Shown here one piece after another: positions 38,277 through 59,200 of a stretch of 64,000 bases of DNA; position 1 is the first letter of the stretch, and each line of letters starts with the position of its first letter. The translations under genes were made by a program, and so were the position numbers. The notes under the pieces were generated by a model. That model did not search any database. It worked only from the letters and a program-made list of their open reading frames with translations, and was not told where the DNA came from. Origin of the DNA: Paramecium tetraurelia (lineage: Eukaryota); NCBI GenBank assembly GCA_000165425.1, contig CT868015.1, positions 186,001 to 250,000 on the forward strand, read 5' to 3'.

Positions 38277-39281
38277 ATGATTTATATTTATATTTTTGCT
38301 GCCCTTCTTGTGGTAGCCTTGATCAAATTTATATGGACAAGTCTTATCAGTCCAAAGGCTCCAAGTGCCTTAGAACCCAAGCATAAGCGGGAATATTTAA
38401 CTTGCTAATTGATAGAGAAAACCAAATTGAGTCATGACACATATAATTTTAAATTTGCTCTTCCATCTAAGAAACATGCATTGGGAATCGAAGTGGGATA
38501 ACACATTATCTTACAGTAATATAATTTCATAAATTTAGTGAGCAAATAAAAACAAGAGAGTATCCAGAAGGAGAGTTGGTGGAGAGGAAATACACTCCAA
38601 CCAGTCCAGTTGATTAGAAGGGCAATTTCGATTTATTGATTAAGATCTATAGAGCAAATGAGCATCCTAAATTTCCTGACGGAGGTAAATTAACTTCTTG
38701 GATTGAAAATATGACTGTAAGAATAAATTGATATTTTCAGCCAGGAGAATCCATTCACATTACTGGTCCTGGAGGTCGATTGATGTATTTGGGATATGGA
38801 AATGTTTAGATCAATAAAATGCCATAATTATATAGAAAGAAATATAAAAGAATTGTGATGATTGCTGGTGGATCTGGAATCACCCCTATGTATTAGATCA
38901 TCCAAGCCGTGGCCACAAATAATAATGATAGAACTCAATTAGCATTGCTTTTTGCCAATAAATCTGAAGTATTAATTAATTATTCTATCATGATAGTCAG
39001 ACATTTTATTGTACAATTAGTTGAAGGCATATGCTTCCTTGAAAAAGTTGACTCTGCACTTGACTTTGGACAATGTAAATAAATTGTTAATTTATGATTA
39101 GCCTCCAGCATAGTGGGTTGGATTCTCTGGATTTGTCACCAAAGATATGACTGAACAGGCATTTGGTAAATTGGATAGTCAGACATTGGCTTTGACTTGT
39201 GGACCTCCTATGATGAATTCATTGGCTAGAACAAATTTCTAATCTTTGGGAATGAATAGTGACGATATTTTTGAGTTCTGA
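38277..39281 (+). CDS. NADH-cytochrome b5 reductase with N-terminal membrane anchor
   Basis: SHDTYNFKFALP; RKYTPTS; KIYRANEHPKFPDGGKLT; AGGSGITPMYQI; LLFANKSE; CGPPMM. Confidence 0.95.
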
Positions 39282-39495
39282 GAAGAGAAAATAGTGTCAA
39301 TTGACAGTTTAATATATAGAAATCATATTTATTTTAATTCTTTGTGAATTATAATTGGATATGAGAGTGGTTTCTTGAGAGGGGAGACGAAAGAAAGGGA
39401 AGATGCAAACAGAATTTATATATATACTGGATAATATAAATTATAAAGTATTCGTTTTTAAGAGAATTGACGATTAGCATTAATATTAATATAAT

Positions 39496-41576
39496 ATGAA
39501 GACAATCCTACTTGTATTGTTGAGTGTGCAGATCTTATTAGCATAGGATCCTTGGGTAACCCATTATACAGCATTTACATCAGCTGAAATAAATGACTTG
39601 GATGGTAATCTTGCATGATTAATAATTAGGCTGGGTTGTAAAGAAAGCATTTAAAGGAAACACTTTTAGCAAATGTGACAAAGTCAGTTTGGTTGGTGGA
39701 TATGGAGCTTTTGGTAAAGGAGCAACAGCTTTGAAATAATTAGCACTTCCACCTCATTATAAATTAAAGATCAATGTACAATTGTGGAAGTAATATTGAT
39801 TAAATAACTAAAACAATAGAATTGATAGTTGGGATAACGAAATAATGTTTGTTTTGGTTGATGGTTTCATTTGGCAAGCAAAATGGCACTATTCTGAAGG
39901 AGCTAATTTATGTGGAGCAGCTAATGATTGGAAGGAAGCCTTTTATAACATTGAGTTTGAAGTTCCTCACAATTCACCCACAGTGAGCATAGTATTGACA
40001 TCCAATTTGGACGAAGATGCTTTGAATGTAAGGATAATCATATTAATCATAATAGGAATCATGGGCATTCAGAGATTTCAAATTGTCATTCTAAAGATGT
40101 CATTCAGAATGTGCAGTATGTGGAGATAATAAACCAGATAATTGTTTCTTTTGGACAAATGTAGCTACTAATTGGAATAAGTAAATTTCATTAGAAGGAT
40201 GGACATTGGATGGAGAAGGAAAGGCTGAATCAAATGAATGTGCAGGAGTACAACTCTTTGGTGGTTATGGAAAATTAGGAAGAAAAGCCAATTTATGGAA
40301 GAGATTCACTAATTTACCACCTCACTTTTAAGTTAAGGTCAAGGTATAAATGTGGAAGATTGATTCTTGGGATAATGAGCTGTTCTTAATGGAAATTGAT
40401 GATTAGGAGAAATTCAGATAAGCCTTTGCTTACAATGAAGGAGTTGATCTTTGTGGTGTTGATACAAATGCCAAATAAGGAGAAGGATGGGCTGAAAAGA
40501 TAGTTAATATCGAAATTAATGTCCCTCACAAATTCCCTGAAGTCAAAGTCTTAATGAAATCTACATTGGATGAACCACCTGAGAATGAATCATGGGGAGT
40601 TAGAGATTTCCAATTATTCGCTGCTCAATGTTTCAAAGGATGCACAGGTTGCACTGGACCAGCTAAATCTGATTGTACTTCATGTGGATAAGGTTTCGAT
40701 CTTGTCAATGGTGAATGCAAAGAAGGAAGTAATTTAATAGATATATAAATTTATTAGTTAAATGGATGACATTGAACAGATTCTTCTTTAATGATGAATA
40801 AGATTTCTAAGGATTGTATGATTGGGTTCCATCAAGTGTATTCCAAAATTAAAATCCATTTTCAACTTGCGGATAAAAGAAATTGTTTGGTGGTTATCAA
40901 AGATTTGGTGCCAAGGGTAAGGCTGAGAGAAATTTCAATCTTCCCAAACATTCAAGACTCAGAATATAATTCCAATTCTGGAAGATAGATTCATGGGATG
41001 ATGAGAAATTCTAACTCTTCGTTGATGGCAAGGTAGTCTTTGAAAGATCATTTGGATTCAGCACTCCAGGACAAGCCAAAATCTGCGGAGCTCCTTAAAG
41101 CACTTGGATGACTTACTTCTTCAATGTTGATGTCATTCTTGAACACACTAATCCTACTGCCAACGTTGTCTTAACTTCCACCTTAGACTAAGCTGCTGAT
41201 GACGAATCTTGGGGTTTCAGAGAATTCCAAATCCTTTATGAATTAAAAGAAGATTGTGTTGAATTGTATACTGAATGTGGATTCAAGGGAACCAAATTTG
41301 ATGTCTGTAGAGACACTCCATCACTTGCTAGAGTAATCATTTATTTCAATATCATTGTAGGAAAAGATCAGTTAAGTTAAATCAATTAAGATTCCTCCCG
41401 GAGTTGTAGTCTAAGGTTTTGATGAAGAGGTTTACAAAGGAAAGACTGTGAAGTTTTCATAAAGTTAAGATTGCTTAGAAGAAATCCAATTTTCTTTCAT
41501 CCAAAAAAAGTTTGAAATCATCTAAGCTGATGATTCTGTCCTTGCTGCAAATTTAAGACGTATCAGATTTGATTGA
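39496..41576 (+). CDS. Secreted protein: three repeated ~170-aa domains, Cys-rich linkers, C-terminal beta/gamma-crystallin-like domain
   Basis: Signal peptide; three units each with (F/V)GGY..(F/L)G, LP.H, WKIDSWD.E and LD...(N/D)ESWG.R.F; tail CVELYTECGFKG...VKSIKIPPGVVVQGFDEEVYKGK. Confidence 0.85.
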
Positions 41577-41846
41577 TATAAAATAAATAAAATTAATATT
41601 TTATAAGTTCTTTCTCTACATTATTCTCTTCATAAACAATGGGCAAACTAATATTTCATGATCATGATGAAGTCTTACCTTAAAAAAATATTATATAAAC
41701 TATTGCTTGATTATTATTCGAAATCTATAATTATAAAAACAATAAGAATTATTTAATTAAAGCATATTCATTTTCTTTTCTGTTTATCAAATATATTTGA
41801 ATTTATTATAAATATTATATTTAAGAATTTTTGCTTAAATTTATTA

Positions 41847-43825: not shown

Positions 43826-44875
43826 TCAATGGGAATTCTTAGAGAAATCGGTTATAATTTGAACATCTTCGTCATCCTCTTCATCTATAATAATAATATT
43901 TCGATCTTTGTTCTACGGTTCAATGCGTTTTATAGAATTTTAAATAATGTTTGGATTAACTAATTATTATTAAATTTGCCAAGGATTAATATCCTGTGTA
44001 ATGAAATTAATTTTAGATTTTTTTATTGTATTATTTTTTTCATTATTCGGTTATTTCTTCTCTTCATTTAATTTAAGATTCTCGAAAAACTCTTTTATTT
44101 CCAGTTAATTAAAAGTATACCTTTTTTATTATTCTTCAATCTATTCTATTTCAACTTAATGTTACTTTTAGTCTACTTATGCTTATTAAAATTGAGGTAT
44201 TTATTTCTTCTTTTTTTATTATTTTTTCTTTTATTTTTGTTGATATTTCGGTTTATATTTTCTAAACTTCATTTTAAATTGTCTTTTTTATATTCTCAAT
44301 CTTGGTGAGATTCTCTTTTTTGATTCAAATTCAACATAATTTTGATTGGGTAGATATTCAACCTAAGACTCAATGAATTTGGCTTATTTCGCTTAATCCC
44401 AGATAAATTTAAATTGTTCTGTAAATTATTTTGCTGTTTTAGAATCTTTGATTATTGTAATATGCTCAAAGTTATTTGAGAATGCTTGAAATGTCCAATT
44501 TGCACTACCTAGTATTGTTATTTTATTGTCAATAACACAATATTTGGTATGCATTAGACCTTTCGATTCAATCAATGAAACATTCACTTTGAATCCACTC
44601 ATCACTAATAGCTTATTAATGGTTATCTTTTTTCTTTCCTCTTACTCCTCTGAGTTTTAATCCATAATTATGTCAACTCTACATCCTTAGGTAGCTAATG
44701 AAATTAAGATGTCAATAATTGTCTGATGAGTCAATTAATAAATGCAGCCCAAAAATGTTGACTTACATTTCCTTAGTTTCCTACAGAACCTTGTGAAATT
44801 GTCTTCATCGGGAAAAAACAGGTGTTAAACCTTTGCTGTAAAATGTTTACTAGTAATTGATCTTTCTTTAATCAT
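43826..44875 (-). CDS. Single-HKD phospholipase D superfamily nuclease (PLD6/Zucchini/Nuc-like), 349 aa, intronless
   Basis: LFFPD; CIYQLTH; GCRVDIIMD; MHTKYCVIDNKITILGSANWT (exact HxKxxxxD-x6-GSxN); NNFEH; FTEQFKFIW. Confidence 0.9.
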
Positions 44876-44881
44876 TATATT

Positions 44882-44906
44882 TATATATATATATATATAT
44901 ATATAT
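44882..44906. repeat. (TA)12 microsatellite
   Basis: Perfect TA dinucleotide run, 6 nt upstream of the PLD6-like start codon. Confidence 0.95.
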
Positions 44907-45049
44907 TCATTTGGCTTAATTGTTTTTTACAAATTTTCGATTCTAATTGCCAAATTTCTACAGGATTATTTTCTTTGATTAAATACAATTGTTATTTATA
45001 AAATACTTATTAAATCTATAATTTAAGTTTTCGAAAAAGAATAAAAATT

Positions 45050-53225: not shown

Positions 53226-56200
53226 TTATATTTCTAATGATGGTAATATCTTAAAATTGCTAAATAGTTGTGATTAATGGACAATACTCCTTAATCATTA
53301 AATAGATTGATTAAAATGGCAATGTTTTCATGAGTTAATTCTGGTACTATTGTTTCATATTTGGCCAGAATATCTGGTTCATTTTATTCTTGCATAAAGG
53401 ATTCTGATTTTTTGAATGCTACACTCTTTTTAACTGTTTCAGTTGCTTAACCATTTTGCATTTAGATTGTGCCTAAATATTGATAATTATCATACTTGGT
53501 TTTTAGAAGAAATAGAATCCAATTTATTCGATAAGTTTATAAAATGCCTTTTTATGATGTTTGTAATCTCTTTCTTTCATCTTTTATGATTGCTGATCTG
53601 ATTCCTTCATTTTCGATTGTAAATTGAGAGCATCTTACAAAAGCATAGACACATTGGCATCAGTAATATATATGTTTCCATACAACACATTTTTTTCATC
53701 TGAAATAATTAATTTATCCTTTTCTTCTTTGGATAATGAAGTAATTATTTTTTCTTTGTTTAATCCACCCAAAACATAAAGAATCTTAAATTCATGAGCC
53801 ACTGGATTGTATAATAATTTAGTAACAATTGTGCCTTCATCAATAAACACAGCATTCACATCATTTTTTGGGGCAACTTCTAATGAAGTTATCAAACATT
53901 TTTGATAGGATTACATGTGTAACTTTAAGAAACGATGGGTTTTAGAAATCATTCTTTGTAAATAAGCTCCGCTAAATGTCATCACTTTCGCCTCTCTCCA
54001 CACTTTTTAAATGAACTAAAGCACATCCATTGAAGAAACACCAACCTTTTTCTTGGATTCATCAAATAACATTGGATTATACTTTTTCTTATATTAATAA
54101 TCTTATTCGATTATCTCAGTATAAATTTCAAGTGCCAGTTTATTAACATCTGGTAATGGTGTAAGTGCAACTGCAGCAAAGTTCTCCAATAATTCTTATC
54201 TTGCTTTAACTAATTCAATAGCATATTTAAGATAGCTTTGTGCTTCCAATTCTAAATTTAGTTATTCCAACCTATCTGATCTTTCCATGCTAATTAATTA
54301 TTATTCCAAATCAATTTTATTCTACTCAGTATCTAAATATAAATAATAATTATTACTCTTTGAATTTATTAGGGATTGTAAATAATCTACCTTAACATAT
54401 CTGTATCCTTATCTCACTCTATATTCTCTAATGAATAGACAAATTTCAGCCATGGCAACCAAGATGTCTTCTGGTTTTCTATTGTATTCGAATAATACAG
54501 CTTCTCCTCTGATTACACTAATAGCCTTCGATAGGCTTTCCTTTGCCTACATTAAATATTAGAGTCCCTATTCTTTAAGTAATTAACAGAAAGGAGGAAC
54601 AAGCAAAAAGTATTTATTCCTTACTAAATCCCTATGAGGTCTTTTTTCATAGAATTCCGCATATTTCTTATTTTTACCCGACAGATATTTCATAAAGTAC
54701 TTTTGTTGCAAATTTAGTAATAATTATACGAATCTCATCTTGAAAATCTTGCTTTATTAGTAATACAATTCTAATCTGAAACTTATGGGTACATTAATGC
54801 TCTTACTAATTGAAGTATCTATTTTATTAACGATCTCACTAATTACGTTAATATCGAAAATGTCTTTAACAGAAGACTTGTCACTTTCTGAATCAGAAGC
54901 GAGTGATGATTCTTGAGAATCTATTGATATAGTGGAATTTTCATTGGCCTAATTCAATGTAATCATTATGTCAACATATCTTAATGATGCCCTTTACCAT
55001 AATTCAATGTTCTTTATATAGCAATTATATTGATATTATGTATTATTGATTGTATCAATATCCACTGTTGTATAAGTGAGCTTTGTTGGTTAAATGAAAT
55101 TAAAATTAGGTAATTAATTTAATCCCTTTATAGGCATTTGAGGTTTATCAATATTTTCTTTTTTAGTTTGCTTATCGGCTCCCTTTCTAGCAAATTTGCC
55201 ATCATCCTTTTTCTTTTCATCCTTCTTAGTTGTCTTGATTTACTTATCTGTCTTTTTTAATATTTCTTATTCTATTTCCAAAGGAACACACAAGTCTTAA
55301 CAAATCTAAATCTTCTCTTGTCCACATTTCTGATTCCAATTAGGTACTACCCCATATCCATAATTGATCATCTACATTAATTGTTCAGCCATTTAATAAG
55401 CATCATAGAATTATTGTTTGGCTTCTTACAATTCATTTTTTTCATAATAGATTTCCCCAAGATCCCCATATAACACTATCATTTGAGGATCTTAATGGAA
55501 ATTCTTTTACCCTATTTCGATTGCCTCTTTAAACTTCTTAATTGATTCTGTTGATTTTCCCTTCTTAAATTGAATTCTTGCTTGATACTCTATGATTAAT
55601 CTTTAGTGATAATTGTCATTAAATTGTTTGCAATCATTCATCAAGGCTTCCATTAATTCCAAAGCTTCCTCATGTCTATTATGTCTGTATAATAACAGTG
55701 TCAATTCAGTTCTTAATTTAATCCAATAATAGATGTTTAATGAATGTCTTGTTTTTCTGGCTTCTACAATTTGTAGGATAGTTTCTTCTAACTTAAGTTA
55801 TGCATCCGTTTTCACAGCGGGTACTTCATCTGCAATAGGTTTATCCTTGGATTCTTTTCCTTCCTTTCCTTTCTTCTCAGGTGCCTTCTTAGCTCCTTTC
55901 TTATCCTCGACTACTCCCTAAGGTTTTAATTAATCCCATGGTAAATTTTCCAATTCCTCACCATTTTCATTGGTGGACAATTCAAGTGTGTATGTTTACA
56001 AATTCTCAATAGCATATTTGAATATGTACAATGCCCTTGTAATTTATCCCATACTGACATTCACTTTTGCCATCAAATTTCTGGATCTTGCCATCATGTA
56101 CATTCTCTCTTCTCTTTTTTATAAGTATGTTAAGGCTTCCTAATTATTGGTTACTCCAATTTATTTGGATGTTCCTTACAAATGGTAATAATCTTCCATT

Positions 56201-59200
56201 TTTGGATCAGCTAAGATTTCCTCTTTAGGTTTAGTCAGTATTCTTTGTTCGATTTATTCTTCCTAATTCAACTTATTCAAAGTGTTTCTCAATATAGTTT
56301 CAACTTTTATTAGGAACTTACACCTTAAATCATTAATTTCCCATTTCTCAATTATATCTCCAGAATGGATATTATAGACTAAAAGTGCAACTGCATAATT
56401 GAAGATATTCTCATTCTACAAACCGTATTTCAAGCCAAATTCTCTGGTTAATTCCAATTCTTTCAGTATTTTTTCTGTTAGTTAGGTGTGTTTTTCATCG
56501 TAAGGAGGTATTGAATTATTCCATTCTAGATTTGAATACCACCATTTTCCAGAAACTCTAGATTGCCAAAGCGAAGTAGATTAATCTGGTAGATCCTTCT
56601 CACTTGCAATTTATAATAAAGCCTAATAAGCTTAATTTATGTATCCAATTGAAGACAAAGCAATTGATCTTAACAATTTAGCACGCACTGAATAGAAATT
56701 GCTTTATAATCTATTGCTTAATTCACCAAGTAGATTGATTAGAGGGACAGCCCTTAAGGCCTCATCTCTATCCAATAACAGCCATGCACATCTTTCACAA
56801 GACAATGCCAATTCAGCTGGATCCAAAACATATCTATCATTGAAGATATTTCCGATTGCAACTTCCTTTGTATGAATAAATGCTTGCCAATCCAGCCCAT
56901 TAATCATTTGTAATTTTAATACTGAAGACACCAATTCAGATGCCAGAATTGCACTCTCTCTCTGTTGATGGCAATTAGAATAGTAGCAATTATAGGCTAG
57001 AATGGAACACAATGTAACTCCAATTAAGCATTATTAAATGCCATAAGTTTATGCAAGCAATTAATTATTTTTGTTACACTCCTATATTATCTATCTGAAT
57101 GCACTACTTTTCAATACAAAGATTCTTTGGAATATTGTATCCAAACTCTCACTCCAAGATTCTTCAGCCTAAGCATAATTCTACATAGCAAAATTCAATG
57201 ATCCCAATTCCTTCAAAGCCAGCGCCTGTGCAAATTTCTCCTGTCTTTTATGCAATAACTCACATGTCAGTTTATATTTTGAAATGACTTACATACCAAA
57301 CTATTTGTGATTCTTCTTCTTTTATTTCAAAGTTTAATCCATCAATTACAATTGCTTCTTATCCAATGTAGTCTATTTCAATAAATATTATTCAGAATTG
57401 AATTCTAATTGTATACTTTCCTTGCTTAACAATTCATCATCTATAGCAAATTTTTCATATAGTTTTCTAGCTTGTTTTAGGTTTTCTAATGCTTAATTTG
57501 CATCTCTATTTATTTCTTAAATAAGTTTTTCACTAACTTTTAATTAATTCTCAATGAAATCTTGTTTTTATTGTAACAAATGAATTTACTACAACAACAT
57601 TTCTTTATCTGCACGATAATCTTGTTCTTCCTAAGGTATTTCTTGAGTTAATAATGATGATCTAGTCTTCTTCTTCTTTGTTTATTCCCAGACCTAGAAT
57701 GCTTGTGTTCTTGCATTAAGTTCTTCCTATTTGAGCTATGTTTTATTCTAGGCTTCTTTGAATAGAATAGTCTAGGCATGAATTGTAAATGGTAAAATAT
57801 ATTAAGAATAGTAATGAGTAGTCAAATTGCAAAATTATCTTGATATTCCAATTAAACTATTCCATTTTTATTCCACCATTAATGATTAAACAATGTAGGC
57901 CATAATATTGGCCAACAAATCCATATCCTTGTATTTACTGAACCAGCAATCTTTGGATAATTACGTAAGTAAAGATGGTCTGATGGGTTCAGTGTTAGGC
58001 AAAGGTGGTTCAAAGACATAATCTTATTATTGCATGTGAGGTTGCAATGCCAATTCATTTTCTGCTTATTCCTTTACTTAAAACCAACCATGATCTTTGA
58101 CTTCTTTGATTAAAGTGTTGATACAATTTCCAATGAAACACAAGTCCTACCAGCATTATCCTTAATGAATAAATGGAGTTATCTGTTCTTTTAATAAGAA
58201 ATTGTATAAAAACTTGACATGATTTAACATTACTATATATTATTTACTCCAAACAGCAAAACCACATGCATCAGCAACATTTTTAATTATTTAAGTCGAT
58301 AATTAAATTAATTCTTCCTCCTCGCTTAATTCAACAACTGGCTATTGCACTTATTATTTTCCAGGAGGTTACTTTGCAGGAGGTTACTTTTATTATGCTT
58401 GTTGTTAAAGCTATTATAACTATTGTTCTTTTTATTATTATAGTGCTTATTATTATTATTTAACTTGTTTCTAAGAATCATTTTCATTTATCAGTTCTTT
58501 CAAATGTTCAATATCTAAATTGAAGACAGATACAAAACAATCAACATCAACTAGTCTAATTCTGTTGCTTTTATAAGACAATATAGCTTTCAAATAACTT
58601 AACTCACTTCTCCATAATTATACGTATTCAAATCGTTTTGCCTTTGACATGATTCCAAATCTATTTATTGTTTAACCCTCATTTTTTAGTTGTTCCAATA
58701 ACTATGTCTTTTTTGTATTATACTCCTCAAATAATTAGATGGCATCATCATTTCCTACTTTATTAGTGTTTTTGTCTATAATCAATTCTGGTAATAAGGC
58801 AGGATAAAACTCAATATCTAATTGTATGCATTTTTATTAAATTTAAGTGATATCATTTGCTATTGCAACACTAGGTTAAAATTGCTCATTAAAGACCGCT
58901 AGCGGTTATATAATTTTATAATCTATGTTACTTTAAATCATTCTCCTGATTAATTTACATAACATCTCTATATATATTGGGTGTTATTTTGGTAATTTTT
59001 AGGTAGCTGTTGATAAATCTTTAATGCATTCCCAATATTCTAGCCGTATTGACAATTCACTAAATATTTTATCAATTTGATCGGCTGGGTTTTCCATGTA
59101 GGGAATCAATTGATCTATTTATTCTTTCCACTTTTCAACGAATGAAGGAACATAATCACCGAACTCATCGTTCATAGCCAATAGAGTTTCTTCCAAATAA

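Follow-up and report, generated by a model that had tools for sequence, protein, structure and literature searches.

A putative Nuc/PLD6-type nuclease with a basic tract and a conserved SIM-like tail in Paramecium, and its conserved dead paralogue

The 64-kb window, i.e., the whole stretch of DNA that was analysed, is overall AT-rich ciliate DNA and carries at 43826..44875 on the minus strand a gene, referred to as clade member A, for a single-HKD PLD6/Nuc-type protein of 349 aa. The question arises what a protein that joins a nuclease-like domain to a basic tract and a SIM-like tail could do in Paramecium, and whether it represents a genuine member of a known enzyme type. The gene call combines an open frame, a Pfam domain and a homologue alignment. 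The frame (43826-44875, minus strand) comprises 349 codons followed by TGA in the ciliate code (NCBI table 6), and the intronless structure that the earlier note had proposed is supported by this uninterrupted frame and by annotated homologues of 320-355 aa that align over their full length; three RNA runs contained no splice joint within the gene, at a depth too low to judge splicing. A wrong frame or an artefact is ruled out by the Pfam domain, the homologue alignment and the selection pattern, and a pseudogene by the overall dN/dS of 0.21 against the ohnologue (Nei-Gojobori, for the single pair of the gene and its ohnologue, dS about 1.1). Out of 2298 candidates, a full-length protein search retained 12, namely the query itself, seven Paramecium aurelia homologues of clade A (53-85% identity to the query) and four distant ones. 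All five aurelia species that the searches returned have two copies of clade A. We conclude that the gene encodes a real, selected variant of a known nuclease type that is apparently undescribed.

The PLD/Nuc domain (aa 14-167; 44375..44836, minus strand) was delimited by Pfam, a structure model and fold matches, with Pfam PLDc_2 (PF13091) spanning aa 31-159 at an E value of 2.2e-30. Its active-site signature HxK(x4)D(x6)GSxN (aa 109-126; 44498..44551, minus strand), located by motif scan, is the signature of PLD-superfamily endonucleases (PMC5714352). It is complete and occurs only once in the 349 aa (H109, K111, D116, G123, S124, N126), in agreement with the one intact HKD motif claimed previously, and is intact in all 11 proteins inspected from clades A and B. 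The domain has a dN/dS of 0.056 against the ohnologue, a column identity of 0.83 in an alignment of eight sequences, and a net charge of +5 to +8 in all eight aligned clade A proteins. By fold, a structure model derived from a 74-sequence alignment (pLDDT 89.7) matches best Nuc (Z 22.7, rmsd 1.6, 151 aligned), NucT (Z 20.9) and mouse Zucchini (Z 19.9, and 19.8 for a second structure), followed by the inactive FAM83B (Z 18.9), while lipid PLDs reach 15.7 or less; Foldseek concurs with the Z ranking (NucT, E 5.5e-13). Since FAM83 domains are inactive and yet adopt the same fold, the fold is no proof of activity. At the sequence level, the best PDB match is mouse Zucchini (E 3.5e-14) with NucT next (1.5e-12), the best NCBIfam matches are NucT models (E 2.5e-17, far below the model cut-offs), and cardiolipin-synthase HMMs match weakly (E 9e-10, far below cut-off). 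PADLOC matches to DrmC/DpdK were attributed to the common PLD domain. Overall, we consider A likely to be a nuclease and not a lipase.

Zucchini has an N-terminal mitochondrial membrane anchor and a Cys/His insert, named CCCH, which in mouse Zucchini (4ggj) lies between FFP and the first helix. No N-terminal anchor was found in A, as the top 19-residue hydropathy among the windows starting within residues 1-22 is -0.35, compared with 1.69 and 2.69 for the same measure in two anchored-looking homologues, and the N-terminal maximum stays below 0 in all eight clade A proteins. Likewise, the Cys/His insert is absent after FFP, which in sequence and model, set against 4ggj, runs directly into the first helix, so that the lack of a membrane anchor and of a CCCH zinc segment had been read correctly in the earlier note. 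Its view of A as a Zucchini that has been rebuilt fared only partly as well: The single-HKD fold of the Nuc/Zucchini type and the intact signature stand, but bacterial Nuc and NucT match this fold at least as closely. Since, in addition, other Paramecium single-domain paralogues also begin just before the FFP strand without an anchor or a Cys/His insert, and since the deep nodes of our tree stay open, a rebuilt Zucchini is not supported. The tree is a quick one of 93 rows with no named animal Zucchini among them, and 46 of its 90 inner branches are left open; it likewise lends no support, with its deep nodes open, to a recent bacterial transfer. Judged by the model, A is best described as a PLD-fold protein that resembles the Nuc/Zucchini nucleases in fold and active site but fails two Zucchini features, the anchor and the zinc insert.

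Downstream of the domain, a Lys/Arg-rich tract (aa 186-224; 44204..44320, minus strand), which by its composition could bind nucleic acid and/or mediate import into the nucleus, and a two-part SIM-like tail (aa 327-341; 43853..43897, minus strand), recognised by conservation and pattern and composed of four aliphatics, an acidic run and V-Q-I-I, both read as previously described. The earlier note had made its proposal depend beforehand on the conservation of the SIM and the basic tract in orthologs, and both are kept in all eight aligned Paramecium aurelia homologues. The tract is maintained as composition in the eight-sequence clade A alignment, with 13-16 K/R among the richest 30 consecutive residues of 8/8 homologues, a column identity of 0.40 and a dN/dS of 0.32. 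The tail core (aa 325-333), in contrast, reaches a column identity of 0.81 compared with 0.29-0.40 in the linkers and the basic tract (0.29-0.38 for the three linkers), and the dN/dS of the last 25 residues (aa 325-349) is 0.13, calculated from 13 synonymous sites, compared with 0.56 for the linker. The conservation of the core together with this dN/dS identifies the tail as a selected motif, the end of which is under purifying selection. Of the two aliphatic cores, 10/10 clade A proteins have the first and 9/10 the second; one sonneborni homologue (P0008) terminates immediately past the first SIM core.

A SIM consists of an aliphatic core next to an acidic run, conserved within a variable region. 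The tail conforms to this pattern, with an aliphatic core and an adjacent acidic run conserved amid variable sequence, and from the pattern we lean towards its predicted binding of SUMO. Written as a DNA pattern that was fitted after the fact, [VI]4-D-[DE]3 has at least three matches in the 72-Mb genome, gene A included, and the control at least one, all counts being lower bounds. A K-K/R-x-K/R cluster, the strict NLS pattern, occurs in the tail of three of the five clade A proteins scanned and is missing in two. The motifs of A would make a nuclear location likely.

How might these parts work together? In our proposal, A would be a soluble Nuc/PLD6-type endonuclease, probably favouring single-stranded DNA or RNA, in which two copies of the domain would pair and, by analogy to the family, the two His109 residues would cleave the phosphodiester via a phosphohistidine. 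PLD endonucleases are described as dimers with two histidines in which the width of the groove sets the preference for single or double strands (PMC5714352). The basic tract may bring the protein to the nucleus and/or hold nucleic acid, and the two-part tail may dock the enzyme on SUMO-modified nuclear proteins. The likeliest use, which is also the weakest step of the proposal, would be sexual nuclear reorganisation, where A could clear or trim nucleic acid such as excised DNA, DNA of the old macronucleus or used-up transcripts. In this context, it is relevant that the genome contains SUMO genes, that SUMO genes are described to peak early in autogamy and to be needed for IES elimination (PMC5485702), that SUMO and Uba2 are included in the Pgm proximity proteome (PMC13092971), and that the degradation route of excised IES circles is stated as unknown (PMC5346157). 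A role in nucleic-acid clearance during sexual development is plausible and, as far as the sequence can tell, a reasonable hypothesis; that sexual development is its main setting, as the context would suggest, we put at slightly less than an even chance, and the whole chain of a soluble, nuclear, SUMO-docked nuclease clearing nucleic acid at that stage we advance tentatively.

Expression of the gene was followed in three stranded poly(A) RNA runs chosen by species label and carrying no stage label, of which a third to two-fifths each was used. The gene is transcribed, if weakly, as sense (minus-strand) reads cover it in 3/3 runs at mean depths of 1.45, 2.34 and 0.26 (by estimate ~26, 39 and 4 reads). 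Such low depth is compatible with stage-restricted expression, and it says little because three neighbouring genes are similarly low in the same runs, in which a multi-copy neighbour reaches depths of 64-248. At about 38400-41580 of the window, the plus strand carries a gene with many introns, high expression and repeating units rich in Trp and Cys; at many of its positions reads and contigs show a second letter, which points to several near-identical genomic copies.

Upstream of the gene, an intergenic block conserved with the ohnologue in the alignment (44930..44969, minus strand) represents a candidate promoter element, the 19-nt core of which has only two matches in the genome, the gene and its ohnologue, from both of which the pattern was built. 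Immediately before the ATG lies a (TA)n run (44882-44906) that is absent upstream of the ohnologue. The Co-PGM promoter motif, which spans 18 bp and is given for 98 of 180 Co-PGM regulated genes (PMC10711438), was scored in nine promoters by mismatch count against 200 shuffles and not with the published matrix. Its best match upstream of the gene has four mismatches, with 85% of shuffles as good and none nearby within two mismatches, and that in the ohnologue promoter has three (28% of shuffles as good). In the catalytically dead pair C, introduced below, a Co-PGM-like motif is located at -63/-64 from the ATG with two and three mismatches (5.5% and 23.5% of shuffles), within a block that is nearly unchanged between both ohnologues. 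Since the promoter of a SUMO gene scored equally (two mismatches, 5% of shuffles) and nine promoters were tested, the motif of C is a lead only.

IESs are common in this organism, and A probably carries one in the germline: One contig of a DNA-like run departs right after the TA at 44291..44292, inside codon 195, and continues for at least 255 letters, its other end not being seen, while a second contig is uninterrupted there; the TA frequency in the region is 0.10. Loose contig ends also meet the TA at 41579, a possible second IES boundary, and further, less clear ones lie at 41767, 43393 and 47233.

The domain matches eight places in the genome that fall into four groups, A to D, and beyond these a Pfam scan of the genome found two-domain PLD-type genes only. 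One of the paralogues encodes a protein identical at every position to an NCBI entry of Paramecium tetraurelia. Group A comprises the gene at 43826-44875 and its ohnologue, whereas group B comprises an intronless gene (L003) with the active signature and a distinct tail of acidic and basic residues, together with a copy truncated at the 5' end. The latter (L006; G000:C347, about 55700-56730, minus strand) starts inside the domain, is identical to L003 at 1040 of 1046 positions including downstream DNA, and is a recent duplicate, a pseudogene or an assembly artefact. Group D (L007 and L008; G000 C125 and C291) is a pair with the active signature and a single intron, in which long repeats of Pro, Lys and Glu are combined with a strongly acidic C-terminus; the quick tree places this pair elsewhere, while A, B, C and a 78-aa fragment form one clade (SH-aLRT 96). 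The fragment (P0132, from a Logan contig) is 53% identical to A and ends at a point where one would expect a glutamine encoded by TAA/TAG; it probably belongs to the clade as a more distant ciliate representative.

The most unexpected addition to the family is the conserved dead pair C (L004 1435-2028 and L005 1438-2058; G000 C682 and C22; plus strand, from domain matches), which, like the paralogue clade to which it belongs, had gone unmentioned in the earlier account. Both genes are intronless, and the catalytic His and Lys are replaced (His>Pro, Lys>Asn) in 10/10 proteins. C is a stand-alone domain of 200 aa with a dN/dS of 0.033 and 90-94% identity across species, it occurs twice in all five aurelia species returned, and its alignment with A spans 166 columns with 31% identity. 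The retention of two copies of both A and C in all five species suggests dosage constraint and perhaps a complex. Outside Paramecium and the 78-aa fragment, the best matches show 23-39% identity (best 150 of 8430, from 1.84 billion representatives), and in a metagenome scan the best 80 of 548 loci showed 24-54%, with none of those inspected (GC under 0.36 or in-frame TAA/TAG) reading as a ciliate gene. Among longer proteins, 0/7038 candidates matched, which is weak evidence, and the ESM Atlas matches to protein A, all under 0.9, are leads only.

Several other explanations have to be set against the preferred one. The same anatomy of fold, basic tract and SIM-like tail would fit a housekeeping nuclear phosphodiesterase that SUMO recruits to damaged DNA, protein-DNA adducts or R-loops and that has no special role in rearrangement, for which TDP1 and SIM-bearing repair enzymes can serve as a working model. 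Reads in all three RNA runs and the lack of a significant upstream match to the Co-PGM motif would agree with this. However, A has one domain and one motif and is not a two-domain HKN enzyme, and among the matches listed its close relatives are confined to Paramecium and one 78-aa fragment, which is odd for a core repair enzyme; we regard a housekeeping function as rather unlikely. A cardiolipin or phospholipid hydrolase, as stated by the automatic UniRef name of the homologues ('Mitochondrial cardiolipin hydrolase'), could draw on the weak cardiolipin-synthase HMM matches and on the lipase activity reported for mammalian PLD6. As the dead paralogue bears the same name, it was apparently auto-transferred; A moreover has no membrane anchor, and a conserved basic tract with a SIM-like tail appears ill-suited to a mitochondrial lipase, and we regard a lipid substrate as very unlikely.

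With mouse Zucchini as its best PDB sequence match and FFP before helix 1 common to both, A could also be a nuclease that acts on Piwi-bound scnRNAs or iesRNAs in the manner of Zucchini, making, trimming or destroying them, which was the first option of the earlier note. In Paramecium, Dicer-like enzymes produce both kinds of small RNA, which leaves their biogenesis without an obvious Zucchini step and makes it the weaker branch, whereas turnover would be possible. Zucchini and NucT are described as single-strand selective (PMC5714352), but anchor and zinc insert are absent from A and the quick tree does not settle orthology with Zucchini, so that we consider a function in small-RNA metabolism distinctly unlikely. 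Finally, A may join the active B and the dead C in a heteromeric complex of PLD-fold subunits, in which C would scaffold, target or restrain the enzyme. The common clade, the alignability of C with A, the selection and duplicate retention of C in spite of its lost residues and the Co-PGM-like motif in both C ohnologues would speak for such an assembly; the motif match is borderline, however, and an A-C pair would miss one of the two catalytic histidines, so that C could be regulatory only. Such a complex we consider quite unlikely. Its most far-reaching version would be a heteromeric nuclease of the intronless trio, i.e., the SIM-tailed active A, the second active protein and the dead one, recruited by SUMO to developing nuclei and destroying excised germline DNA or spent guide RNAs. 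This is a long shot; if true, the trio would carry out the disposal step so far missing from programmed DNA elimination and, next to Pgm/PgmL, be a second nuclease machine that combines active and dead members.

Within the full-text literature, in which few subscription papers are covered, we found no paper on the gene or its family in ciliates, and two paralogue IDs, other than those of the dead pair, returned 0 papers. Term searches revealed no PLD row in the supplements of PMC4503560, PMC11385659 and PMC11602119, nor in those of PMC5485702 (apart from its genome-wide expression table), PMC13092971 (46,464 characters, with the Zenodo MS table outside it) and PMC10711438 (its first 4.0 million characters, with Tables S5-S7 outside them). 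As candidates for the disposal of excised DNA, we list gene A, GSPATT00033709001, GSPATT00015646001 and the dead pair GSPATT00024632001/GSPATT00030516001. If the preferred reading is true, a SIM-docked, anchor-less PLD6-type nuclease would connect an enzyme with the known need for SUMO in IES excision; should expression turn out to be flat and a knock-down silent, A would be just a lineage-specific representative of a widespread family of nucleases.

Compared with known systems, the Pgm/PgmL complex provides an analogy only, as its fold is unrelated and a complex of A, B and C is hypothetical. The paralogous partners of Pgm are catalytically degenerate. In DNA elimination, Pgm itself is described as an endonuclease that acts together with five paralogues (PMC13092971). 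The pseudo-PLD domains of FAM83 (5qhm, 4urj) have the same fold as A (Z 18.9), which in contrast retains the catalytic His, and they are a precedent for His-less PLD domains (PMC5714352) that is relevant to C, although C, unlike FAM83, consists of the 200-aa domain alone and belongs to a Paramecium clade. Zucchini/PLD6/MitoPLD (4ggj, 9lkx, 4gel) is the best sequence match of A, has a fold match of Z 19.9 and has the FFP motif and an NWT-x-A-x-x-N-x-E segment in common with it, but possesses the N-terminal anchor and the Cys/His insert, whereas A has neither and carries a long tail instead. Salmonella plasmid Nuc (1byr) and Helicobacter NucT (6ehi) are, like A, single HKD domains with the full signature and no insert, and they are its best structural matches (Z 22.7 and 20.9) at 20-28% identity, with A below the NCBIfam cut-offs. 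NucT is described as periplasmic with a signal peptide (PMC5714352), whereas A has no hydrophobic N-terminus and extends the domain by a 180-aa basic and SIM-like tail.
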